Assembly: GCA_025350565.1 (NCBI GenBank)
Contig: JANXXO010000034.1
Coordinates: 30,577-94,576 of the forward strand
Source: Acidimicrobiaceae bacterium
Lineage (GTDB): Bacteria; Actinomycetota; Acidimicrobiia; Acidimicrobiales; RAAP-2
Direction: 5' to 3'
DNA length: 64,000 nt
Position 1 is the stretch's first letter, and each line of letters opens with the position of its first letter. Positions 5,369 through 55,406 of this stretch are shown here, piece by piece. The notes below the pieces were generated by a model. It saw nothing but the letters and a program-made list of their open reading frames with translations. It was not told the DNA's origin and ran no database searches. The position numbers and the translations under genes were made by a program.

Positions 5369-6052
5369 TCAGGCGATTTCTTGCGGGTCGAGGTCCGGCA
5401 ATTTCCAACTTTGACGGTGGTGCGAATTCGGACCTAAACGGCGCAAGGCCGCCATGTGGGATTTGGAGCCGTATCCCTTGTTGCTGGCCCAATCGAACGC
5501 TTCGAAGCCCCGATGGAGGTCGACCATATGACGATCGCGGTCGACCTTGGCGAGGACTGACGCGGCGGCGATGGAAGCGCACTTGCTATCGCCTTTGACA
5601 ATGGTCGTGACCGGAAGGAACTGGTAGCGAAGCTCGGGTGGCTGAGGCGAACCCAGGGCCACTTGCAGCGGGGCGCGTAACACGTTGAACGATCCGTCAA
5701 CGAGGGCGTACGAAGGGCGAAGGGTGAGACCGTCGAGCGCGCGCGTCGCCGCAACGGCCAGGGCGAGACGAAGTCCCCACCAGTCGATCTCTTGGGCGCT
5801 CACCGAGCCGAGCGACCAGTCGGCTGCCCACTGCTGGAGGGGTTGCTCCAGAGCTTCTCGTCGAGCGCGGCTGAGGAGTTTCGAGTCGGTCAACAGTGCC
5901 GGTGCGGGCGCGTCGCACGTCAGTACGACGGCGCCAACGGTCATTGGCCCAGCGACGGCTCCGCGACCAACCTCGTCAATGCCGACTACGACGTCGCCGC
6001 GCGCGAGCAACGGTCCTTCGACGTGGAAGAGATCGACGGCGTCACGAGTCAC
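5369..6052 (-). CDS. rnhB: Ribonuclease HII
   Basis: GIDEVGRGAVAGP, DSKLL, KGDSKCASIAAASVLAK and NKGYG motifs. Start placed at GTG 6052; the longer ORF is an antisense extension over cofC. Confidence 0.92.
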   Translation of the reverse strand: MTRDAVDLFHVEGPLLARGDVVVGIDEVGRGAVAGPMTVGAVVLTCDAPAPALLTDSKLLSRARREALEQPLQQWAADWSLGSVSAQEIDWWGLRLALAVAATRALDGLTLRPSYALVDGSFNVLRAPLQVALGSPQPPELRYQFLPVTTIVKGDSKCASIAAASVLAKVDRDRHMVDLHRGFEAFDWASNKGYGSKSHMAALRRLGPNSHHRQSWKLPDLDPQEIA

Positions 6053-6082
6053 GCCCCAAGGGTAGTGACGTACTCGCGCAGT

Positions 6083-6637
6083 ATGTTGACACGGGTGATC
6101 AACGATGCCTTCGTGGTACCGCTCAAGGCCTTCGAAGTCGCCAAGGGCCGACTTCGAGTCGCGGGCGATGACGACGTGACGAATCTCGCGCGCTCCCTGG
6201 CCCTCGCGGTGCTGCGGAGTTGCGCGCCGCGTCAGGTGATCGTGGTGAGTGAAAGCGACGTGATCACCAAGTTCGCCAAGGAGCAAGGCGCCCAAGTGTA
6301 CGAATCGGCCGCCACCTCGCTCAACGAAGCTGTGCAGGGCGCGTACGACGCACTCGCGCAATCCTACGAGCGCTTGATCATTGTCCACGGCGACTTGCGC
6401 AGTCCGGACGGCTTGGCGCTCTACGACCCACCACCGGGGGTCACCATCGTCGCCGATCACCACGGCAGCGGCACGAACGTCCTGGCCCTGCCGAGCGGTT
6501 TGGACTTCCACTTCGCCTACGGCGCGAACTCGGCGTTCCTGCACGGGGCCGAAGCCCGCCGGCTCGGACTCGACGTGCACGTGGTCACCGACAGTCCCTG
6601 GCGATTTGACGTCGACGAGCCGTCGGACCTTTTCTAG
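6083..6637 (+). CDS. cofC: 2-phospho-L-lactate/PEP guanylyltransferase (F420 biosynthesis)
   Basis: VVPLKAFEVAKGRL, VHGDL, D.HGSGTN and FDVDEPSDL motifs. Confidence 0.85.
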   Translation: MLTRVINDAFVVPLKAFEVAKGRLRVAGDDDVTNLARSLALAVLRSCAPRQVIVVSESDVITKFAKEQGAQVYESAATSLNEAVQGAYDALAQSYERLIIVHGDLRSPDGLALYDPPPGVTIVADHHGSGTNVLALPSGLDFHFAYGANSAFLHGAEARRLGLDVHVVTDSPWRFDVDEPSDLF

Positions 6638-6647
6638 TCGGAAAGCA

Positions 6648-6675
6648 TTCGAGGGGGGCCGTAGCCCCCCTCGAA
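6648..6675. terminator. Probable bidirectional terminator between convergent cofC and histone-like gene
   Basis: Perfect 12-bp stem TTCGAGGGGGGC / GCCCCCCTCGAA with CGTA loop. Confidence 0.7.
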
Positions 6676-6697
6676 CCAAAATCCCTGATGGGACTTA

Positions 6698-6976
6698 CTA
6701 CTTCTTAGCAGCAGCCTTCTTCGCAGGGCGCTTTGCCGCCTTCTTCGCAGCAGGACGCTTGGCGGCCTTCTTGGCTGCGGGACGCTTCTTAGCGGCGGCC
6801 TTCTTTGCGGGGGCCTTCTTCTTTGCAGCAGGACGCTTGGCGGCCTTCTTCGCTGCGGGACGCTTCTTAGCAGCAGCCTTCTTGGCTGGCGCCTTCTTCT
6901 TTGCTGCAGGACGCTTAGCGGCCTTCTTCGCTGGAGCCTTTTTCGCTACAGCCTTCTTCTTCGCGGCTGGTGCCAC
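6698..6976 (-). CDS. Histone H1-like Lys/Ala/Pro-rich basic protein (PAKK repeats)
   Basis: 92 aa, 35 Lys, no acidic residues. AGAGGG RBS before GTG. The 26-aa tandem repeat differs at synonymous positions in the DNA. Confidence 0.8.
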   Translation of the reverse strand: MAPAAKKKAVAKKAPAKKAAKRPAAKKKAPAKKAAAKKRPAAKKAAKRPAAKKKAPAKKAAAKKRPAAKKAAKRPAAKKAAKRPAKKAAAKK

Positions 6977-7147
6977 TTTCCCTCCTTGGGACTCAACGTT
7001 GAATCAATTTGGGACCTCAAGCACACCACCGTGGTGTTCTCGAAATCGGTACCGCATTGATAGACGTGTACTCGCTCATGTGTCATCCAACCTCACGGCT
7101 GTACGACGACTGATCGCAGTGCACGGTCCTACGCGGAAGAGCGCTTC

Positions 7148-7174
7148 GTGAAAACGTTGCAGGCAACGTTTCAC
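7148..7174. promoter_or_regulatory. Inverted repeat upstream of the VirD4-like gene (operator or oriT candidate)
   Basis: GTGAAAACGTTGC-AG-GCAACGTTTCAC, with perfect core AAACGTTGC/GCAACGTTT, in an AT-richer intergenic stretch. Confidence 0.4.
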
Positions 7175-7280
7175 TCATCATTCACCTCCTCCGCAGAAGG
7201 ACATCCAAAAGTTCACTCGTTTTGCACACCAATGTCAAGCATTTCGAGATTTTTCTGTTAGGAAAGTTTTGCGACGACCG

Positions 7281-8588
7281 ATGTTTGTCGTGCGCACCGA
7301 CGACGGAATTTATTTAGGACGCGGCGTGCACGGTGACGCGACGAGTGGTCGAGAGCGTTCGACACTCGTGTTGGGTCCGAGTCGCAGTGGAAAAACTTCG
7401 TCGATTATCATTCCGAATCTCCTGATGACAACGCGTTCTTGCGTCGTGACGTCGACGAAGAATGATGTCGTCGAAATGATGTCGCGCACGCGACGCGAAG
7501 GTGCAACATTGCTCTTTGATCCATCGGGGACTGTTGTGACTCCGACCGGAGTGCACCGAATTGGTTACTCACCAATTCGACAATCACTGTCCTGGGATGG
7601 CGCGGTGTTGGCGTCGCGAAGCCTCATCGACATCGCGCGACGTGGTCGCGGCGATCGCGGCGACGATCACTGGACGGAACGCGCGGGCGCGCTGGTCGCT
7701 CCGCTACTGCACGCGACGGCACTTCGGAACGAATCACTGGGCCAGTTGGCGTCACGCGTCGACGAACGACGCTGCGACGACATCGTACACGAATTGACCG
7801 AACGACACGGTGAACATCATCCGTCGGTCTCGCTCCTGCGCGGCGTCCTCGCCACCGACGATCGTGAACGCTCCTCCATATGGTCAACGACGTCGGGACT
7901 GTTCGCCGGGGTGCGCACCGAGGCCGCCCGAGCCTCCTCGCGCGAAGCGCCGCTCGACGTCGACGCCTTTTTGAGTGGCCCGCACCAGTTACACATTGTG
8001 GCGCCGAGCCGTCACCAAGCCGTCTCGATTCCACTCGTGGTGGGGCTGATCGAAGAGCTCGTCCACGCCACGTACGACCGGCACGAGCAGGGATCCCGTC
8101 TCCTCTTGGCGCTGGACGAACTGGCCAATGTGGCGCCCCTTCCACGTCTGGCCAGCATTATCTCCGAAGGCGGAGGTCAAGGGGTGCTCACCCTCGCCTG
8201 CCTGCAAGACCTCAGCCAGGCCCGAAGTCGCTGGGGGACGTCGGCCGATGGCTTCCTCTCCCTTTTCCCGACCACCGTCGTATTGCCGGGCATCGCAGAC
8301 CGTCCCACCTTGGAGATGCTGCGCCACCTCGCGGGGCGCACCAACGTGGCGACGCCCACGGTGCAGTTGGGCCGGCGCGGCCGCCAAGTCGGTCGGTCCC
8401 TCAGCTGGGTCGAACGTGACCGCGCCAGCATGAGCGATCTCGCCCAAGGTCGCCCGGGCCACGCCATTGGCCTCGACGCCAGCAAGCACATGAGGTGGCT
8501 CGAGCTGACCCCCGCGCACGCCCATCCAAGGTTCCTTCACTACCTCGACCGTTCGGACCCGTCGCGTGATCGGTCGCGCGAGCGCTGA
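7281..8588 (+). CDS. VirD4/TraD-like type IV coupling-protein ATPase lacking the N-terminal TM anchor
   Basis: Walker A GPSRSGKT, Walker B LLLALDELANV, CLQDLSQARSRWG motif of the TraG/VirD4 C-domain. Confidence 0.82.
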   Translation: MFVVRTDDGIYLGRGVHGDATSGRERSTLVLGPSRSGKTSSIIIPNLLMTTRSCVVTSTKNDVVEMMSRTRREGATLLFDPSGTVVTPTGVHRIGYSPIRQSLSWDGAVLASRSLIDIARRGRGDRGDDHWTERAGALVAPLLHATALRNESLGQLASRVDERRCDDIVHELTERHGEHHPSVSLLRGVLATDDRERSSIWSTTSGLFAGVRTEAARASSREAPLDVDAFLSGPHQLHIVAPSRHQAVSIPLVVGLIEELVHATYDRHEQGSRLLLALDELANVAPLPRLASIISEGGGQGVLTLACLQDLSQARSRWGTSADGFLSLFPTTVVLPGIADRPTLEMLRHLAGRTNVATPTVQLGRRGRQVGRSLSWVERDRASMSDLAQGRPGHAIGLDASKHMRWLELTPAHAHPRFLHYLDRSDPSRDRSRER

Positions 8589-9616
8589 CGCCAGTCGGCT
8601 AGATCACGGTCCGCGAGCGGGCGATCGCCGTGTGCACGAATCAGCGAGGTCATCCTCGCCTCTCGCACACTGATGGTCGGCTCGCGGACCCCGCCTCCGC
8701 CAGCCAACTGAGGGTAGAGCTCGTCGACGGCGCGGGTGAGCGCCTGGTGGGACTGACCGAACCGGGCGGCGTTCGACCACGCTTCGACCACGTGTCGACG
8801 AGCGACGTCGAGTCGACCTTCCAACGCGCCCGCGAAGCCATGTTCGTCCAGGGTGGTGCGGTGACGCGTGGGTGCCTCGAGCACGCCGTGGGCGACGAAG
8901 CGTTGTTGATCGTGACGCCACTGCTCGCGTGCGTCGTGGCGCTGCCAGTGCAACTTGTCGCCTCGTTCGCGGTGGTGTCCGCCCCAGAGCGCACGGTACC
9001 CCTCATCGAGTCCGGCGACGTGTTCAATGCCTTGAAAGGAACGCCACGCCGTCCACGGTGTTCGCTCGGAGAGTTCGTGGCGAAGCGACGCTCGATACAG
9101 GGCGTCCGCCGCGAGCGCGTGGGCAAAGAGACCGCGACTATCGAGCACCGTACGCGCCTGTTCGGGCTGCGCACCGACCAGCACGTGGTCGTGGAGGTGA
9201 GGTTCGCCGTGTCGATTGACGCCGTGCGTGAAGCTGACAATGCTGCGCCACTGACCCTTTTCGTCGCGGTCCTCGCCGTCGCGACGGTCGCGCACCACGA
9301 GGGAATGCTCTTCGAGGTACTCTACGGCCGCGCGCACCGATTCGCGATGCGCCGCCACCACCCCGGCGCCGTGATTCGGGTCGAGGGCGATCAGCACCGA
9401 GATGGGCCGGGGCGCCGCCACGATGATGTCGTAACCCTGGACGCGCGATCGTTCGGTCGTGCCGAGCACGCTGCCCACGTCGCGGGGATCGCTGGTGTCA
9501 CCTCGGCCCCGCAGCCACCATCCGGCGTCACCGTCGCGAAGGCCGTCCAGTTCGAGGGCCTTGTCGTCGGTGAAATACCTGACGTCGTTGGATCGTCGCG
9601 CCACCATTCGAATCAT
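8540..9616 (-). CDS. MOBF/TrwC-family relaxase domain protein without helicase
   Basis: N-terminal Tyr (VRYFTDD), motif II-like YDIIVAAPRPISVL, HUH motif HGVNRHGEPHLHDH. Start placed at ATG 9616 (MIRMV). Confidence 0.85.
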   Translation of the reverse strand: MIRMVARRSNDVRYFTDDKALELDGLRDGDAGWWLRGRGDTSDPRDVGSVLGTTERSRVQGYDIIVAAPRPISVLIALDPNHGAGVVAAHRESVRAAVEYLEEHSLVVRDRRDGEDRDEKGQWRSIVSFTHGVNRHGEPHLHDHVLVGAQPEQARTVLDSRGLFAHALAADALYRASLRHELSERTPWTAWRSFQGIEHVAGLDEGYRALWGGHHRERGDKLHWQRHDAREQWRHDQQRFVAHGVLEAPTRHRTTLDEHGFAGALEGRLDVARRHVVEAWSNAARFGQSHQALTRAVDELYPQLAGGGGVREPTISVREARMTSLIRAHGDRPLADRDLADWRQRSRDRSRDGSERSR

Positions 9617-9643
9617 CGGACCCCGTGAGCCCAATGGTCGCGT

Positions 9644-11599
9644 TTACAGCTGGGCGGTGATTCTCTTGGCCAGTTCGTGGCCGGCCTTGGCGAAGGTCGG
9701 CGTCGCCACCACCGCTCCCGCACCCGCGCGCAGCATCAGCTGATCAAGGAAGTGCTCGTTGCCGACCCGGAACTTGACGGCGTGTCGTCCGTCCTTCAAG
9801 ATCAGCCACTGCGCGTTGGGCAGCGATTCGAAGAGCCAGCGCAGTGGAGCGTCGAGCACGACCACCACTTCATCACCTTCCTCGCCCACTTGGGTGAGCC
9901 AGTTGACCACGAGGTCGCGGGGTCGCTGCTCGGTCACGGGCGAGGTCGCCACGACGGCGTTGATGCGGTCGATACGGAAGGTTCGCCACGAAGTGCGGTT
10001 GAGACAGTAGGCCCGAACGTAGGTGTGGCCATTGAGCACCTTTATCTCGCGCGGCTCAATTGAACGCGTAGACGCGGCCTCCGCGTTCGCCGGCGTGTAG
10101 AGAATCTTGATCTGTTGTTCCTCGGCGACGGCCTCGGAGACCTGGGCGAGCAGTGGTTCGTTGGTCGCCATCTCCACTTGCAGGTACGAACTGGTGGCCG
10201 CTTCGATCTTCTCGATGGCGGAGTGAATGGCCGCGTCGTCGTAGACACGCGACGCCTCTCGGAGGGCAATATTCAGTTCGAAGAGGTCGCGCCACATAAA
10301 TGGCGATGGCTCGTCGGCGCCTTCGGGCAGGTCGCTGAAGTCGGCGCGGTAGGTCGAATCGTCGTGGGACTCGTCGTCCCAGTCGTCGCACTCTTTCAAG
10401 ACGTGCGCGGGGAAGGCGCCGGTGCCGTCCGTGGAGCCGGCCATTGGTTCCAACGAGACCAGACGGTCCATGATGAGTCGCACGTGGCTCGGGTCGAGTC
10501 CAAAACGCATCGCCAGTTCGCTAATCCGCAACCCGTCCTCGGCGACGTACACGGCGTGGAGCAGTTGCAGCGTTTGGCCGAGCACGTCATTGGTCGCCGG
10601 ACCGTCGAATTTCATCGACTCCATGGACGGCGTCTTGCCACGGTTAACGTTCTTTAACCACTCGGCCAATTCGACCTTCAGAGACTTGGGCGATTGCAAT
10701 CGAATTCGGTCGGCCCCTTCGACGACGAAGCGCAGCGCCGTGCGCGGACTGTCGAAACTGAGCCCGACGTCGACCTTGCCGTCTTTCTTACTGGCCGAGA
10801 GTGCGCCGGGGTACTGGCGCACGAGCAGATCGGCGTAGTTCTCGTTGGTCGTCACCACCACGTCCAGGGGATGGGGTGATCGGGCGAACTCCGGTCGCCA
10901 GGCCTTGGCCACGTCGCGCGCGTCGGCGACGTCGTCGAACTGCTCACCCAACACCACCGGCATTGACGTCATGCGGCTGAAGCGGTAGCCCTTTATCTCT
11001 TCGGTACCTCGCACCCGCGCGATCAGATACGAGACGCCGTTGAACACGTCGATCAACAGTGGTTCGACGACGCGCGGCTTGTTGGCGCCCGATTGATAGT
11101 CGAAGGTGATGGCCCGATGGAGATTGAGCGCGCGAATGATCGGCGTGTAGTACATCGAGGATTCAAGGCCCCCGTCGCCCGCCGGCACCTCATTGAAGAC
11201 GCTGAAGGCGCCCGACGCGCCGAAACCGCAGAAACGCAGCGCCAAACGAACGACGCGCTCCTCGTCTGGCGTGAAGTTGATCAGCGGCGCGTAGCCGCTG
11301 GATGGATCGATGCGGTAACCGACGCTTCCGTCGTCCTTGACGGCGGTCTCGATTTCAAAACCCAATTCTCGGATGCGCGCCTTGTCGCGCTCGAACTTCT
11401 GGCGAACCGCTCCCTCGTTGCCTTCGTAGGCCGGGATCTTGCGCGGCCCCTTGGCGGCGACCGGAAACTCATCGATCTTGAGCTCGCGCACGATCTCTTC
11501 TTGCGTCAACGCGCCGTACTGCCAGGCACGTTGAAGGAGGAGCACGAGCGCAATAAGTCGCTCCCGGCTCTGTTCAACGCCTCCGCGAATACTGCTCAT
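9644..11599 (-). CDS. pafBC: Fused PafB-PafC-like regulator (HTH-WYL-WCX twice)
   Basis: PafB-like KFERDKARIRELG..GYRI, first WYL YLIAR..YRFSRM, second HTH ISELAMRFG, second WYL YVRAYC..RTFRIDRI. Strong AAGGAG RBS. Confidence 0.8.
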   Translation of the reverse strand: MSSIRGGVEQSRERLIALVLLLQRAWQYGALTQEEIVRELKIDEFPVAAKGPRKIPAYEGNEGAVRQKFERDKARIRELGFEIETAVKDDGSVGYRIDPSSGYAPLINFTPDEERVVRLALRFCGFGASGAFSVFNEVPAGDGGLESSMYYTPIIRALNLHRAITFDYQSGANKPRVVEPLLIDVFNGVSYLIARVRGTEEIKGYRFSRMTSMPVVLGEQFDDVADARDVAKAWRPEFARSPHPLDVVVTTNENYADLLVRQYPGALSASKKDGKVDVGLSFDSPRTALRFVVEGADRIRLQSPKSLKVELAEWLKNVNRGKTPSMESMKFDGPATNDVLGQTLQLLHAVYVAEDGLRISELAMRFGLDPSHVRLIMDRLVSLEPMAGSTDGTGAFPAHVLKECDDWDDESHDDSTYRADFSDLPEGADEPSPFMWRDLFELNIALREASRVYDDAAIHSAIEKIEAATSSYLQVEMATNEPLLAQVSEAVAEEQQIKILYTPANAEAASTRSIEPREIKVLNGHTYVRAYCLNRTSWRTFRIDRINAVVATSPVTEQRPRDLVVNWLTQVGEEGDEVVVVLDAPLRWLFESLPNAQWLILKDGRHAVKFRVGNEHFLDQLMLRAGAGAVVATPTFAKAGHELAKRITAQL

Positions 11600-11824
11600 T
11601 GCTCTCCTTCTCGTGCACTACAGAGGGTACCCGTCGGGGGTGAGGACAATCGCCCACGCGAAGAAGAAGGGTCCCGTACCGTCACGCGCTTGACCCGCGG
11701 CATTGGCACATTCACGCCTGGCCACCCGCAGTTCGTCGCTACCGTGTTGATCACGTCGGGCCCGACGCCAGATAACGTCCACGACGGACTGATCGATCGG
11801 GTTGGGTCCGAGAAGGGGTGAGCA

Positions 11825-12271
11825 ATGACCATTGAAGGTACTTACGAACCGAGTCCAGCGCAATGGGTGCGCACGCAGGTGGCCTCCTACGAAAGTTCAG
11901 GCGGTACCGAAGCCAATACATTGCGTGATACGGGTCTGCCCATCATCATCGTGACCACCCTCGGAAATAAGAGCGGCCACGTCCGAAAGACGCCGCTGAT
12001 GCGCGTCGAGCACGAGGGCCAGTACGCACTCGTGGCCTCCCAAGGCGGGGCACCAACGCACCCCGTGTGGTACTACAACTTGATGGCCGATCCCGGGTCA
12101 GTCGCGATTCAAGACGGCCCCGCCCCATTCCCCGTCACCGTGCACGAGGCGACCGGGGACGAGCGTGCGCTGTGGTGGGAGCGCGCCGTTGCGGCCTTTC
12201 CGCCCTACGCCGAGTATCAGACCAAAACCGAACGAACCATTCCGGTTTTCGTCGCCGCTCGAGTGTCGTAG
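11825..12271 (+). CDS. F420H2-dependent nitroreductase/quinone reductase (Ddn family)
   Basis: TTLGNKSGHVRKTPL, VASQGGAPTHPVWYYNL and RTIPVF motifs. Confidence 0.88.
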   Translation: MTIEGTYEPSPAQWVRTQVASYESSGGTEANTLRDTGLPIIIVTTLGNKSGHVRKTPLMRVEHEGQYALVASQGGAPTHPVWYYNLMADPGSVAIQDGPAPFPVTVHEATGDERALWWERAVAAFPPYAEYQTKTERTIPVFVAARVS

Positions 12272-12282
12272 CGGCAAGACCG

Positions 12283-14688
12283 TTAGGTCGTCGCCTTCAG
12301 CGTGAGGGCTGGGACGGCGGGTTGGAAGGCCGTCTTGTTGGCCGGCATGGGCCGGCTGATGTAGTAACCCTGGGCCCGGTCACAGCCCAGGTCGCTCAAG
12401 AGGTCGAGCGTGTCGACGTCCTCGATCCCCTCGGCCACCACGCGTAGGGCCATGTCGTGGCCGAGCTGGATGGTCGCGCGCACCAGTTCGAGGTCGCGTT
12501 CCTTGCCGTCGGTGCCGAGTCCGGTGATGAAGTTGCGATCGAGTTTGAGTTCACCGACGGCCAGACTGCTCAGGTACGCGAGCGAGGTAAACCCGGCGCC
12601 GAAGTCGTCGATGGAGACCATGATGCCGAGCTCGCGCATTCGCTCGATCACCGTCTTCGAACTGGCGAAATCGTTAATGATGCTCGACTCGGTGATCTCG
12701 ATGATGAGCGAGGTGCCGGGGAGGTCGTACTGGGCGAGGAGTTCCACGATCCTCTCGGTGAAGCCAACCTGCAGAAGATTGGTCGCCGTGATGTTGACCG
12801 AGACCGTCATCATGCGACCGTCCGCGTACCAGCGCGCGCACTGGCCAATGGCCTCACGCAAGACCCAATCGGTCAGTTCCGCCATGAGTCCGGCGTCCTC
12901 GGCGAGCGGGATGAATTTAAGGGGCGGCACGAGCCCGAGTGTCGGATGGGGCCACCGAATGAGTGCTTCCACAGCCAGAATTTCACCCGTTCGCAAGTCC
13001 AACTGGGGTTGGTAGTGGAGCACGAAATTACCCGTCTCCACGGCCGTGCGCAGATCGTCGAGGAGACTCAGTTGGCTCTCTCCCCCGTCGAGTCCCTGGT
13101 CGTAGAAGACGTAAGGGATCTGTCCGAGTTTGGCGCGGTACATGGCGGTGTCGGCGCACCAGGTGAGTCCAATGGCCTCCGAAGCGTCTGACGGCGCCAA
13201 GGCAATGCCGATGCTCGCGCCCACGCTCGCCTTCATCTTTTGCAACATGAACGGCTCGCAAATGGCCGTCAGAATCTTCTCGGCCACAACTTCGGCGTCG
13301 TGACCGTCGGCGCCGATCAATACCACGGCCAGTTCATCGCCGCCCAATCGAAACACCGTCCCCGAGGCCGGCACGGCGGAGGTGAGCCGCGGTCCCAATT
13401 GACGAAGCAGTTCGTCACCGGCCGGGTGGCCGAACGAGTCGTTGATCTCCTTAAAGCGATTGAGATCGATGAAAAGGAAGGCGAGATGGCGCGACACCGT
13501 CCACGGATTGGCGTAATCGGCAAAGAAGGTCTCGAGGACGTGAAAGAGATGGCGACGGTTCCCGAGGCCCGTGAGTTCATCGGTCTGGGCTTGACGATGA
13601 CGTTCCTCGGTCAGAATCCGCAAGGCCCTCGCCGAGAGGGTCAGGCGCAGACCGGCCATGAGCAACGTGGCCGTCGCCAACCACAACGCCACCCACGAGA
13701 CGTGGCGCACGTAACCGACGAGAAGGATGGCCAAACCGCCCACGGCGGCCAAGCTCGGGAAGGTTACGCCGGCCACACGTTGCGCCCTCAATGGGTCGAG
13801 GGTCGATGGCTTGATCCACACCGACATGGCCATCAGCAAGATTGATGCCGGCCAGGCGACGGCGTTGATCTCGGTGCCGAGGCGCGACGCAAAAATCGTG
13901 GAGGACTGGAAGAGATTTGCCGTGTCGCCCATGACGTTGATGGTGATGCCCGACGCGAGCAAGAACCAGGGCATCACCCAACGGCCCGAGAGCATGACAG
14001 TGCCGCCAATGACCAGGGAGAGCAGCAATAGGTCGCCAATGGGATAGGCGAGATTCGTGGCGGCCGCCGCGACACTGCCCCCCGACGCGTGCACGATGTC
14101 GTGAAAGGCGAACGCCGCACAGACCGCCGCGGCCCCGAGCCCCGCCACGACGCCGTCCAGCCAATTCGGACGCGAGAGCCGACCCATGGCGTTGCGAAGA
14201 AGTTGCACGGTCGCCACGTAAGCGAGAGGGTAAAAACCCAGATAGAACACGTCAGCGAGCGAAGGGACCGAGGGCGTCGCGCCGCCCATCGATTCGAACG
14301 TCAAGAAAGCGTCGCCGAGCGACCATGACAAGAGCCCGAGACCCAGCGCGAGGGGCGCCGCGCGACCGGGGTGTCGATCGAGACCTCGAAAGATACAGAG
14401 CGACGACACGAACGCTTCGAAGGTCGCCACTCCCCAACCGTCCAGCCATGTCCAGCTCTGGCCGCGCGTGCGCGCCACGAGAGAAATCAGATAGACGAGG
14501 ACCACCACAGCGAGCAGTGTGAACACAACCCACATGCGAGGCGCCATGTTCTGAATGAGCGAGGAGTGACCCGATGGTTCCTCGCGCGTCGAAGCATCGA
14601 GTCCCGCGGATTCGGCACTTGACGCGACGTCGCGCGAGGTGTGACGAAAGTGACCACTCCGCACCACGTCACCGGTTGAGTGAGTCAT
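12283..14688 (-). CDS. Membrane-bound GGDEF-EAL protein
   Basis: Many N-terminal TM helices, DELTGLGNRR, DLNRFKEIND, GGDEL, EAL and DDFGAGF motifs. Confidence 0.92.
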   Translation of the reverse strand: MTHSTGDVVRSGHFRHTSRDVASSAESAGLDASTREEPSGHSSLIQNMAPRMWVVFTLLAVVVLVYLISLVARTRGQSWTWLDGWGVATFEAFVSSLCIFRGLDRHPGRAAPLALGLGLLSWSLGDAFLTFESMGGATPSVPSLADVFYLGFYPLAYVATVQLLRNAMGRLSRPNWLDGVVAGLGAAAVCAAFAFHDIVHASGGSVAAAATNLAYPIGDLLLLSLVIGGTVMLSGRWVMPWFLLASGITINVMGDTANLFQSSTIFASRLGTEINAVAWPASILLMAMSVWIKPSTLDPLRAQRVAGVTFPSLAAVGGLAILLVGYVRHVSWVALWLATATLLMAGLRLTLSARALRILTEERHRQAQTDELTGLGNRRHLFHVLETFFADYANPWTVSRHLAFLFIDLNRFKEINDSFGHPAGDELLRQLGPRLTSAVPASGTVFRLGGDELAVVLIGADGHDAEVVAEKILTAICEPFMLQKMKASVGASIGIALAPSDASEAIGLTWCADTAMYRAKLGQIPYVFYDQGLDGGESQLSLLDDLRTAVETGNFVLHYQPQLDLRTGEILAVEALIRWPHPTLGLVPPLKFIPLAEDAGLMAELTDWVLREAIGQCARWYADGRMMTVSVNITATNLLQVGFTERIVELLAQYDLPGTSLIIEITESSIINDFASSKTVIERMRELGIMVSIDDFGAGFTSLAYLSSLAVGELKLDRNFITGLGTDGKERDLELVRATIQLGHDMALRVVAEGIEDVDTLDLLSDLGCDRAQGYYISRPMPANKTAFQPAVPALTLKATT

Positions 14689-17170: not shown

Positions 17171-17214
17171 AGCGGCGCCGAAGGATGCTGGCCTCGCGCT
17201 GTACTATTCCAACG

Positions 17215-17721
17215 ATGACGGGCGAACTCGATGACGATAGGGCTGAGCTCCTCGCCTGTCTCCAGTACCAACGCTCAGCCGTCTTGTCCATCGTGCGTGG
17301 ACTGTCCGAGGACGCGTGGCACACCTCCGTGGTTCCGTCAGGCTGGACGCCGGCTGGATTCGTCGAGCACCTCGGCGGGGCGGAGTACTACTGGTTTCAC
17401 AACGTCGTGGCCGGACTACCCGACGCCGAGCCCCCCGAGGGCGAAGAGCCCACGCCGTTCGACCGGTTCGCTCCCTTTACGAGCGACTCCTCGTCCACGG
17501 AGATCGTCGCCTGCTACACCGAGCAGTGCCGTGTTTCGGACGAGATACTGGCCAACGTTGCGATGTCGACACGACCACTGGGACGCCACACTCTCGATGA
17601 GGCGGTACCGAGCGTCCGCTGGGTCGTTTTACACATGATTGAAGAGACCGCCGCCCACTCCGGCCACCTCGAAATAGCTCGAGAGTTGCTCGACGGCGGC
17701 GTCAGGCTCGGTCAACGCTGA
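17215..17721 (+). CDS. DinB/DUF664 family protein
   Basis: SVRWVVLHMIEETAAHSGHLEIARELLDG motif. A TACTAT -10 just upstream suggests a leaderless start. Confidence 0.8.
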   Translation: MTGELDDDRAELLACLQYQRSAVLSIVRGLSEDAWHTSVVPSGWTPAGFVEHLGGAEYYWFHNVVAGLPDAEPPEGEEPTPFDRFAPFTSDSSSTEIVACYTEQCRVSDEILANVAMSTRPLGRHTLDEAVPSVRWVVLHMIEETAAHSGHLEIARELLDGGVRLGQR

Positions 17722-53780: not shown

Positions 53781-55406
53781 CTAGCGCCGACCGGGAGCTG
53801 CGACCGGAGTAGCGGTACTCAACGCTTCGCGCGCGTGGTAACTCGAGCGAGTGAGCGGCGACGACTGCACGTGCAAGAGCCCGAGCCTTTTACCGCGCTC
53901 CGCGAGGTCCGCGAATTCCGAGGGCTCCCACCATCGCGCGACCGGAAGGTGTTGTTCGGTCGGGCGAAGATACTGCCCTATCGTCGCGATCGAGACGCCC
54001 ACCGCGGCCATGTCCGCGAGCACCTCTTCTACTTCGTCAGCCGTTTCACCGAGTCCGACCATCAATCCCGACTTCGCGGTGAGACCGGCGCGAACACTGC
54101 GAGCGAGCACGGTCAGCGACCGCGCGTAACCGGCGCTCGGGCGCACCGCTCGTTGCAATCGCGCGACCGTCTCGACGTTGTGGTTCATGACGTCCGGTCG
54201 CGCATCAATGATCAGTTGCAGCGACGCCGCGTCACCCTTTAAGTCGCTGGTGAGCACTTCCACGTTGGTGTCGGGTGAGCGTTCGCGGATGGCGAGGACG
54301 GTCGCCGCGATGGCGCCCGCTCCCCCGTCGGCCAGATCGTCACGCGCCACACAGGTAATGACAGCGTGCGCCAGTTTCAATCGGACCACGGCCTCGGCCA
54401 CGCGTTCGGGCTCCGTGGGGTCGAGCGCGAAGGGCTTGCGGGTGTCAATGAGGCAGAATCCGCAGGCCCTCGTACAACGCTCCCCGTTGACCATGAAGGT
54501 CGCCGTTCCCGCGGACCAGCATTCAAAAATGTTGGGACAGCCCGCCTCTTCGCACACGGTCACGAGGCGCAGGTCCTCGGTCAGGGTTCGAAGCGATTGA
54601 TACTCGTTACCCATGTGTGCCTCGATACGAAGCCAGTCGGGCTTTCGAGACCGAATCGGGATCCCGGCGTCGGGGTCGACGCCGGCTTTGCGCAGGCGGC
54701 GAAGGAGCGGGCGCTCGTTCGACGTCGTCGCGCGACTGCGATCGACGCGCGCCACGTGGGCCGGTCCCCCGAGCCGCGCTTCCAACTCCACGCCCAACTG
54801 CTCATCAACGTCGAGGGACGTGACGTCGAGGCCCAGCGACGAAAGCGACGCCACGGGCTTGTCGGCAATGCCGCAGGGGACGATGGCGTCAAAGCCCTTC
54901 ATGTCAATGTCCACGTTCAGGGCCACGCCGTGGAGCGTTCTGCGCAGGCCCGCCTGGTTGCGCTCCGTGCGCACTCCCACGGCGGCAATTTTCGAAGGGG
55001 TCCCCTCGACGTCGACCCAGACACCCGGGTAGCCGGCCAGTCGACCGACGACGCCCAAGTGACCCGACGGATCGAAGTGGCGAACCGTAGCGATGACTGC
55101 GTCCTCCAACTTCGTCACGTGGGACTTGCCGGCCGAGGGATCATCGGCCACCGTCACGATCGCCCACGCCACGACTTGTCCCGGTGCGTGGTACGTGACG
55201 TCGCCGCCGCGGTCGGCGTCGATCACTACTGCGTCCAATGAGGAAATCGGGACGAGAAAGTTTTCGTCGCGGGTGCGAATTCCTCTCGTGTACGTGGCGG
55301 GGTGTTCGAACACGAGGACATAGTCGTCGCGCGACTCCATTAGTGCGCGTTGAAAATCGTTCGCCTCGGCGAAGGAGATCCGCCCGAGGTGACGGCGGCG
55401 CAACAT
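53781..55406 (-). CDS. lipB-lipA: Fused octanoyltransferase LipB and lipoyl synthase LipA
   Basis: LipB motifs EHP..YT.G, DRGGDVTYH.PGQ, KIAAVG, HG.ALN, PCG; LipA motifs CEEAGCPNIFEC, CTRACGFC, RSSYHA; one frame. Confidence 0.92.
   Translation of the reverse strand: MLRRRHLGRISFAEANDFQRALMESRDDYVLVFEHPATYTRGIRTRDENFLVPISSLDAVVIDADRGGDVTYHAPGQVVAWAIVTVADDPSAGKSHVTKLEDAVIATVRHFDPSGHLGVVGRLAGYPGVWVDVEGTPSKIAAVGVRTERNQAGLRRTLHGVALNVDIDMKGFDAIVPCGIADKPVASLSSLGLDVTSLDVDEQLGVELEARLGGPAHVARVDRSRATTSNERPLLRRLRKAGVDPDAGIPIRSRKPDWLRIEAHMGNEYQSLRTLTEDLRLVTVCEEAGCPNIFECWSAGTATFMVNGERCTRACGFCLIDTRKPFALDPTEPERVAEAVVRLKLAHAVITCVARDDLADGGAGAIAATVLAIRERSPDTNVEVLTSDLKGDAASLQLIIDARPDVMNHNVETVARLQRAVRPSAGYARSLTVLARSVRAGLTAKSGLMVGLGETADEVEEVLADMAAVGVSIATIGQYLRPTEQHLPVARWWEPSEFADLAERGKRLGLLHVQSSPLTRSSYHAREALSTATPVAAPGRR

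Follow-up and report, generated by a model that had tools for sequence, protein, structure and literature searches.

A relaxase and a VirD4-type ATPase kept beside a PafBC-type regulator in the chromosomes of Acidimicrobiales

MOBF relaxases cleave a specific site on single-stranded DNA (ssDNA) and remain covalently attached to its 5' end, and the type IV coupling proteins (T4CPs) that recognise relaxases are hexameric DNA-dependent ATPases of the FtsK/HerA superfamily. The substrates of type IV secretion systems (T4SSs) are known, from the Agrobacterium VirB/D4 literature, to carry positively charged C-terminal signals; HerA-NurA, for its part, is a repair pair made of a nuclease and a ring translocase. 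A survey of integrative and conjugative elements (ICEs) found many relaxases and few T4SSs or T4CPs in actinobacteria, a relaxase without VirB4 being classed as “mobilisable” (PMC3158045). As for the regulator PafBC, it is activated by ssDNA bound at its WYL domains (PMC11804915), and elsewhere in actinobacteria its genes are tightly associated with the pafA/Pup-proteasome locus (PMC8223512, PMC5656591). WYL regulators are frequent beside defence systems (PMC9122601). We analyse here a locus in which a relaxase, a coupling-protein ATPase and a PafBC-type regulator are encoded side by side, at positions 7281–11599 of a stretch of 64,000 nucleotides (called the window below) from an Acidimicrobiaceae bacterium, assembly GCA_025350565.1, contig JANXXO010000034.1.

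The list of open reading frames (ORFs) and the translation of the window give three long genes in this interval. The PafBC-type regulator (9644–11599, minus strand; 651 aa) is a natural PafB-PafC fusion which, by its Pfam and PDB matches, carries the helix-turn-helix (HTH)-WYL-WCX arrangement twice. Its stop codon is separated by a spacer of 27 nt (9617–9643, minus strand), read from the sequence and probably an operon junction, from the start of a MOBF (TrwC-type) HUH relaxase on the same strand (8540–9616, minus strand; 358 aa), which consists, according to Pfam, NCBIfam and a structural model, of the trans-esterase domain only and an Arg-rich disordered C-terminal tail. The third gene (7281–8588, plus strand; 435 aa, with an alternative TTG start at 7269) encodes a coupling-protein ATPase of VirD4/TrwB type, assigned by Pfam, without transmembrane (TM) anchor. 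It converges on the relaxase gene, and the ORF coordinates place a 3'-3' overlap of 49 bp at 8540–8588, where the R/S/D-rich tails of the two proteins are antisense-encoded to one another. This order and these positions, seen from the minus strand, are those that a first reading of the sequence alone (hereafter the sequence-only reading) had given when it proposed here an undescribed system of domesticated conjugation parts.

The trio across Acidimicrobiales

The trio belongs to the core genome of the order Acidimicrobiales, where it has been inherited vertically and kept intact. One genome per GTDB species was scanned and 159 species had a relative; the best 80 of these, almost all labelled Acidimicrobiales or Acidimicrobiaceae and coming from peat, bog and soil, were used downstream. 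They provide 84 loci, and all 84 have the three genes in identical order and orientation, with identities to the window of 62–86% for the PafBC-like protein, 59–76% for the relaxase and 68–88% for the VirD4-like protein. The relaxase finds more than 120 database relatives at 63–85% identity in metagenome-assembled genomes (MAGs) of Acidimicrobiales, nearly all of 354–366 aa, the few shorter ones being probably partial. The fine layout is maintained as well: in all but three of the 78 tabulated loci the pafBC-relaxase spacer measures 25–34 nt, and in the window's clade relaxase and VirD4 genes overlap at their 3' ends by 40–73 bp (mostly 49, 67 or 46), bar two loci with a truncated VirD4.

In these two exceptions, which come from two of the 80 species, the VirD4-like ORF measures only 379 aa (L023:9201–10334) and 277 aa (L026:9526–10311) and the overlap with the relaxase gene is lost. 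A frameshift or an error of assembly in the MAGs might explain this, as might a real loss.

Selection on the trio is as strong as on housekeeping genes. Median dN/dS values are 0.13 for VirD4, 0.22 for the relaxase and 0.16 for PafBC, with dS close to saturation, and the mean p-distances of the trio proteins (0.21–0.33) lie below those of the adjacent CofC (0.42) and RNase HII (0.36). Moreover the pairwise distances among the trio proteins correlate with r = 0.86–0.94, against 0.39–0.56 with flanking genes, which fits the inheritance of the three genes as a single unit. The latter range was obtained with OppDF, CofC and RNase HII as proxies of the species tree, proxies that are short, saturated or possibly paralogous; between CofC and RNase HII themselves the correlation is 0.73. 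The sequence-only reading had made its proposal depend on the conservation of the trio in relatives and on the genes not evolving neutrally: the trio is conserved at every locus of the best 80 among the 159 species, and it is purifying selection that we observe.

The family extends beyond these species. An exhaustive search among 50%-identity cluster representatives returned 40 relaxase clusters at E<1e-30, mostly full-length (330–405 aa) plus fragments, down to 36% identity. When the most distant relaxases were used for scanning, 33 further metagenome loci appeared, with a double-WYL gene, a same-strand relaxase of 390–500 aa and a convergent VirD4-like gene; their identity to the window falls to 43–50% for VirD4, 30–40% for the relaxase and 24–31% for the regulator. 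A profile of the distant VirD4 proteins matched 4275 proteins at E<=1e-10, and every source that names an organism is Acidimicrobiales. In distant lineages the relaxase and VirD4 genes also stand tail to tail, overlapping or with a gap of 0–25 bp, and the order pafBC-relaxase-VirD4 persists at divergences where the outer flanks vary.

The setting of the locus is chromosomal. In the 38 large ORFs of the window Pfam recognises housekeeping domains only, for example those of an Opp transporter, RNase HII, an F420-dependent reductase, a GGDEF-EAL protein, MoaC, TldD/PmbA, Dxs, FtsEX, SecA, methionine synthase and components of 2-oxoacid dehydrogenase. No integrase or transposase domain appeared in the Pfam scans of the window, no tRNA lies in its 64 kb, and the repeats flanking the trio are at chance level only. 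The GC content at third codon positions (GC3) of the three genes, 0.71–0.80, is like that of their neighbours; GC is slightly raised over 8–9.5 kb (0.68) compared with the flanks (0.60–0.63). VirB4, T4SS or ICE were found neither in the window nor within ±8–10 kb of the relatives inspected, and no relatives were found in phage genomes or IMG/VR.

The sequence-only reading had described flanks of housekeeping genes, with neither conjugation machinery nor integrase nor att-like repeats, and the Pfam, tRNA and repeat scans of the window bear this out; the T4SS or ICE that might have enclosed the region, and made of it a usual mobile element, is absent over the same distances. The locus is not a mobile element. 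With a conserved trio under purifying selection and no enclosing T4SS or ICE, the domestication of conjugation parts is well supported. That the system is undescribed is also not contradicted by the searchable literature: a full-text search returned no paper joining PafBC with relaxases, and only one passing mention of relaxases in Acidimicrobiia. The component families themselves are already known (the MOBF relaxase domain, the T4CP nucleotide-binding domain and the double WYL regulator of PafBC type), and several of their classical defining features are missing here.

Some neighbours recur across the order. On the VirD4 side these are a divergent Lys/Ala-rich gene, CofC, RNase HII and Opp, and on the other side CtaG, MoaC, TldD/PmbA and Dxs. 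Genes related to F420 surround the trio: CofC (about 6090–6637, plus strand) is always two genes from VirD4, and an F420H2-dependent quinone reductase gene is divergent from pafBC in the window (11825–12271, plus strand) and stands between pafC and the relaxase gene in one distant lineage (L167:12877–13293). DinB/mycothiol-S-transferase genes occur nearby in the window (17185–17721) and also in locus L001. In another distant lineage (L170:16611–19449), genes of type IV pilus or type II secretion (T2SS) type, for a T2SSF platform and a T2SSE ATPase, lie 2–5 kb past the PafBC-type gene; they were not seen in the other lineages inspected. The RNase HII ORF of the window (5369–6679, minus strand) has a longest form of 436 aa, with the domain starting at residue 230 and a 5' part that overlaps CofC on the opposite strand; the real gene is probably of about 225 aa, as called in relatives. 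Farther away, an ORF of 541 aa (53781–55406, minus strand), beside 2-oxoacid dehydrogenase E2/E3 genes, contains LplA-B_cat and a lipoyl synthase radical-SAM domain and appears to be a LipB-LipA fusion.

The relaxase, the ATPase and the regulator

The relaxase matches Pfam TrwC (E=4e-25, 89.5 bits for a cut-off of 25) and NCBIfam MobF (E=8e-22, 78 bits, under the equivalog cut-off of 100), and its profile finds TrwC 1omh in the PDB with E=1e-7. Tyrosine Y14 occupies the position of TrwC Y18, and D63, H131, H142 and H144 align with TrwC D85, H150, H161 and H163. These residues are strongly maintained: Y14, D63, H131, H140, H142 and H144 are invariant in a first alignment of 16 orthologs; in a set of 81 orthologs conservation reaches at least 90% for Y14 and at least 70% for D63; and in 72 diverse sequences, down to 28% identity, Y14, H131, H140, H142 and H144 are invariant with D63 at least 90% conserved. 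By contrast, the second catalytic tyrosine of TrwC (Y26) has no counterpart in the relaxase.

A structural model was computed by AlphaFold (AF2) from the alignment of the 72 diverse sequences, a run on 16 close orthologs having been discarded for its predicted local distance difference test (pLDDT) of 33. The model retained has a pLDDT of 94.8 and a predicted template-modelling score (pTM) of 0.93, and Foldseek relates it only to MOBF trans-esterase domains (TraI of pKM101, TrwC, TraI of F and of pCU1), with probability 1.0, about 290 aligned columns, E values of 3e-10 to 1e-7 and target-normalised TM-scores of 0.6–0.65. In this model the relaxase is a complete trans-esterase domain followed by a tail of about 60 residues, the last of which are Arg-rich and disordered. 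The protein ends there and has no helicase domain, so that the claim of a minimal relaxase made from the sequence agrees with a model covering the entire trans-esterase domain of TrwC/TraI. The C-terminal R-x-R of this tail is kept family-wide, including where relaxase and VirD4 genes do not overlap; by analogy with T4SS substrates, it could be a signal for recognition by the ATPase. Relatives on plasmids amount to 16 records, none of which exceeds 36% identity or 56% of the relaxase length.

The ATPase is recognised by Pfam T4SS-DNA_transf (E=4e-22, 79 bits, cut-off 20) and TraG-D_C (E=2e-14, 54 bits, cut-off 22), TrwB_AAD_bind matching also, and its top PDB relative in a profile search is TrwB 1e9r (E=2e-6). 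Neither Walker A (GPSRSGKT) nor Walker B (LDELANV) varies among 74 orthologs and 16 diverse relatives, and 160 of the 435 residues of the protein are invariant. The retention of catalytic motifs already claimed for both enzymes therefore holds, for Y14 and the three His of the relaxase as for the Walker motifs of the ATPase; judged by their sequences, the relaxase, ATPase and regulator genes are intact and both enzymes catalytically competent.

No TM segment was detected in the ATPase, whose maximal Kyte-Doolittle hydropathy over 19 residues is 1.36 (1.18–1.40 in three distant orthologs), compared with 2.62 for the T4CP of Rhodococcus pDK5, which has TM segments. The nearest plasmid T4CPs are found on small Mycobacterium and Rhodococcus plasmids, at 34–36% identity. 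Among them, a relative of about 440 aa and 34% identity on Mycobacterium marseillense pFLAC0026 is also devoid of TM segments. A soluble VirD4 had been put forward by the sequence-only reading: the protein indeed lacks a TM segment, but as a sign of domestication this is weakened, because pFLAC0026, a mobilisable mycobacterial plasmid, encodes a T4CP without TM. These two relatives, one with and one without TM, make small actinobacterial plasmids the likely source of the relaxase/ATPase pair.

The regulator contains two WYL and two WCX Pfam domains, and a second MarR-like winged HTH at residues 339–381. Its top PDB match is PafBC 6sj9, the natural fusion of Arthrobacter aurescens (Aau), with E=7e-16 over residues 61–551, followed by mycobacterial PafB and PafC. 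The window protein thus has the double HTH-WYL-WCX arrangement by which PafBC is recognised, and the fused double-WYL regulator announced from the sequence is a genuine member of this type; 171 of its 651 residues are invariant in 76 orthologs. The kinship is further visible in one distant lineage with separate pafB (359 aa) and pafC (275 aa, matching Pfam HTH_PafC) genes, and in two further lineages whose fused regulator itself matches HTH_PafC. The recognition-helix region VRQKFERDK is invariant, and R70, the counterpart of Aau R48 in the alignment with 6sj9 and orthologs, is retained; in PafB, the recognition helix uses two guanine-reading arginines for a GTC triplet (PMC6789036, PMC8635444). 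Neither pafA nor any Pup-ligase or proteasome domain was found when the 38 large window ORFs and the flanks of the relatives were examined.

Promoters, leader RNA and transcription

Upstream of pafBC, the motif TAC[CT][CG]T, with a conserved CC before it, occurs in 73 of 76 orthologous regions, 20–27 nt ahead of the start codon; in the window this putative -10 hexamer of the pafBC-relaxase unit is TACCCT, at 11624–11629 on the minus strand. In 8 species a hexamer of TACCCT type stands 7 nt before the ATG, a leaderless geometry of the kind often met in actinobacteria. The 27-nt spacer between pafBC and the relaxase gene has no predicted terminator-like site. Because of the short spacer (25–34 nt) and the conserved -10 element, pafBC and the relaxase gene probably form one operon.

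PafBC-dependent promoters have the form tGTCgg-N10-tAnnnT with GTC at -26 (PMC8635444). A GTC element at -26 upstream of pafBC was searched for and is absent, only the CC-preceded TACCCT being conserved there. On the VirD4 side the intergenic region, of 290 bp, is strikingly conserved, and two candidates were considered in it and rejected. A PafBC box (TGTCAA-N10-T-rich) at the invariant CAATGTCAAGCATTTCG (7230–7246), next to VirD4, was set aside as the main explanation: on the opposite strand the block reads as a perfect TTGACA -35 with an A/T-rich tract before it and N17 and TGRACT after it, and the putative -10 on the VirD4 side lacks the conserved A. The hairpins of 6977–7268 were considered as an origin of transfer (oriT), and this was abandoned: their covariation includes many G-U pairs that are possible only on the sense strand of the Lys/Ala-rich gene, which indicates an RNA leader. 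RNAalifold proposes 60 pairs for this leader, 15 of them with compensatory changes.

We conclude that the VirD4-side intergenic region is the promoter and the structured leader, of about 230 nt, of the very highly expressed Lys/Ala-rich gene, on account of the TTGACA-N17-TGRACT promoter, the RNA covariation and the jump of transcript depth: in peat metatranscriptomes mapped on a bog relative (L022), the depth passes from 2–11 over the trio to 250–2100 just downstream of the TTGACA promoter. The start codon of VirD4 is about 40 nt from the -35 box of this divergent gene.

The leader itself (6977–7268, minus strand, core 7049–7139) partly sequesters the Shine-Dalgarno sequence, and its length from promoter to start codon is constant, 264–275 nt in 74 species. 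Rfam gave nothing relevant on 6600–12300 and no match to the leader; a covariance model of the leader core finds the window's clade only, plus one weak distant match (20.6 bits) upstream of VirD4. The Lys/Ala-rich gene (6698–6976, minus strand) encodes a histone-H1-like protein of 92–125 aa with PAKKA-type repeats, whose only Pfam match is a faint HC2, and contains 78-nt tandem repeats. It is divergent from VirD4 in the window's clade and in two distant lineages (L167:9133–9507, L170:7882–8451). As it is kept in these distant lineages, the conserved block may comprise four genes, this one included.

The trio is transcribed at a low level. L022 was the reference for these RNA data, the organism of the window being found only in DNA metagenomes; peat metatranscriptome contigs of low depth cover pafBC, the relaxase gene and the 3' third of VirD4 of this relative. 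These contigs carry no strand information, and the junction of pafBC and the relaxase gene is spanned by none of them.

Possible functions and related systems

Candidate cellular functions of the trio are damage-linked ssDNA processing, chromosomal DNA export and defence. The first is our preferred explanation: chromosomal ssDNA processing in a LexA-independent DNA-damage response, and not mobile-element transfer. We hold it tentatively and stop short of calling it probable. A relaxase/coupling-protein pair, like those of small actinobacterial mobilisable plasmids, would have been fixed in the chromosome beside the PafBC-type ssDNA-sensing regulator of the clade. The relaxase would cleave a specific ssDNA site by means of Tyr14 and its three-His metal centre, and would stay covalently on the 5' end; the soluble VirD4-like ATPase, presumably hexameric, would recognise the relaxase, possibly by its Arg-rich C-terminal tail, and translocate or unwind the attached strand; and the PafBC-type protein, whose relatives are activated by ssDNA, would be genetically coupled to the activity of relaxase and ATPase. 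The pair might thereby act as a repair module of nuclease plus ring translocase, making or handling intracellular ssDNA capped by the relaxase, in functional connection with the ssDNA sensor encoded in the same operon. A wider formulation, in which an order-wide exaptation turned relaxase and coupling ATPase into a core machine for protein-capped ssDNA, wired to the PafBC ssDNA sensor and serving either as a new branch of the LexA-independent damage response or for a T4SS-independent export of chromosomal ssDNA, is conceivable but rather doubtful.

Several observations weigh against chromosomal ssDNA processing under a damage response. The occurrence of a T4CP without TM on a mobilisable plasmid means that the loss of the anchor alone is no proof of a cytoplasmic role. 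At the locus we found no conserved non-coding element of the hairpin-plus-nic, oriT-like type. In the regulator, the other guanine-reading arginine (Aau R44) is replaced by Gln66 in the alignment with 6sj9, so that its DNA target may differ from that of canonical PafBC. A promoter of the PafBC type was found neither before VirD4 nor before pafBC-relaxase, and the damage-responsive role advanced by the sequence-only reading loses ground with the lack of the -26 element ahead of both transcription units. Lastly, pafBC could be adjacent by synteny alone: other housekeeping genes with no relation to it keep their places as well, and one lineage has a gene for an F420H2 quinone reductase inserted between pafC and the relaxase gene.

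This last point leads to an explanation that we regard as unlikely, though serious: the link to PafBC would be one of synteny only, pafBC being the damage regulator of the order, and the relaxase and ATPase would be a unit of their own, for instance for site-specific ssDNA recombination or resolution. It would account for a wider block of unrelated housekeeping genes being syntenic over the order, for the spacers of 170–1100 nt, or the inserted quinone reductase gene, that part pafBC or pafC from the relaxase gene in some lineages, and for the lack of PafBC-type promoter elements near either unit. It accords less with the same-strand spacing of 25–34 nt without terminator in nearly all 80 species, and with a trio order that outlasts the variation of the outer flanks; moreover the distances of PafBC track those of relaxase and VirD4 (r = 0.86–0.94) far better than those of CofC and RNase HII (0.46–0.56). 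We give no better chances to a DNA-transfer module, in which the pair would nick a chromosomal site and feed ssDNA to an unlinked channel (a T4SS, an ESX/type VII or a pilus-type system), for conjugation-like transfer or DNA release, PafBC being a neighbour or a regulator responding to stress or ssDNA. Both proteins retain all that the conjugative reaction requires, the R-x-R tail of the relaxase resembles, by analogy, the known signals of T4SS substrates, the closest relatives of the ATPase on mobile elements are T4CPs encoded by small plasmids of Mycobacterium and Rhodococcus, one of them without TM, and T2SSE/T2SSF pilus-type genes lie 2–5 kb away in one distant lineage. These genes excepted, however, VirB4, pilin, channel and mating-pair genes are missing from the 64-kb window and from ±8–10 kb in the relatives inspected; the ATPase lacks a membrane anchor, the relaxase is without helicase domain and has a single catalytic Tyr, and the conserved intergenic block is an RNA leader and not an oriT-like non-coding element.

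Defence against plasmids or phages, with a WYL regulator sensing the invading nucleic acid and a pair that cuts or hijacks the incoming DNA, was also part of the sequence-only reading and now looks very improbable. WYL regulators are common beside defence systems (PMC9122601), and the WYL models of PADLOC do match the regulator (E ~2e-37), but this match is generic; PADLOC has none for the relaxase, and for the ATPase only mad8, at an insignificant E = 0.006 and 14 bits. The Pfam scans of the window show no defence or mobile genes in the flanks. Above all, the locus is single, syntenic and present in every relative retrieved, and its evolution is slower than that of the housekeeping genes around it, quite contrary to the patchy, fast and island-borne pattern typical of defence. 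The last explanation, that of a decaying integrative mobilisable element, i.e. an old insertion drifting neutrally, which the same reading had kept as its alternative, is refuted. A relaxase with or without T4CP in the absence of VirB4 is indeed scored as “mobilisable” in standard screens (PMC3158045), and GC rises slightly over 8–9.5 kb; but ORFs that stay intact and keep their length across about 80 species, dN/dS values of 0.13–0.22 and invariant active sites are not those of a relic, nor are a fixed chromosomal position, a native GC3 and the lack of integrase, tRNA or att repeats.

Whatever its function, the locus presents relaxases and coupling proteins, usually held as hallmarks of mobile elements, as a slow-evolving core feature of a whole order, and it inflates the counts of mobile elements in Acidimicrobiales metagenomes. 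If the link to PafBC is functional, this would be a clear case of DNA-processing enzymes of conjugation domesticated for a cellular task, and PafBC would gain a new partner away from the Pup-proteasome locus; the case would also bear on the puzzle of the many relaxases and few T4SSs of actinobacteria (PMC3158045).

Compared with the described systems, the trio is close to each by some parts only. Integrative mobilisable elements and small mobilisable plasmids such as pFLAC0026 likewise associate a relaxase and a T4CP without VirB4, but the window locus has neither integrase nor att sites nor replication genes, and keeps one chromosomal position order-wide. With TrwC of R388, and TraI of pKM101 and F, the relaxase shares the HUH trans-esterase fold, the three-His metal site, the Asp and the first Tyr; it differs by the lack of helicase, second Tyr and recognisable oriT. 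Identity to the TrwC/TrwB system is only about 18–20%. The ATPase has the nucleotide-binding domain of TrwB type with its Walker A and B; unlike TrwB of R388, it belongs to the core genome of an order, without TM anchor and with no T4SS and no plasmid or ICE context nearby.

The regulator resembles PafBC of Mycobacterium and Arthrobacter by its double HTH-WYL-WCX, its natural fusion as in Arthrobacter aurescens and the FERDK motif of its recognition helix. It is nevertheless only about 25–30% identical to them, has Gln for one guanine-reading Arg, is not linked to pafA in the window or in the flanks of the relatives, and stands in an apparent operon with a relaxase. WYL-regulated defence islands of BrxR/CapW type also place a WYL regulator beside enzymes that process nucleic acids (PMC9122601); here the regulator is double and of PafBC type, not single as BrxR, and the enzymes, which match no defence model, lie in a core locus. 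For the preferred explanation the nearest likeness, an analogy of function that implies no homology, is HerA-NurA, where a soluble ATPase of the FtsK/HerA/T4CP superfamily and a DNA-cleaving enzyme also form a conserved chromosomal pair; the nuclease of the present pair would differ in being an HUH relaxase, which forms a covalent 5'-phosphotyrosine.

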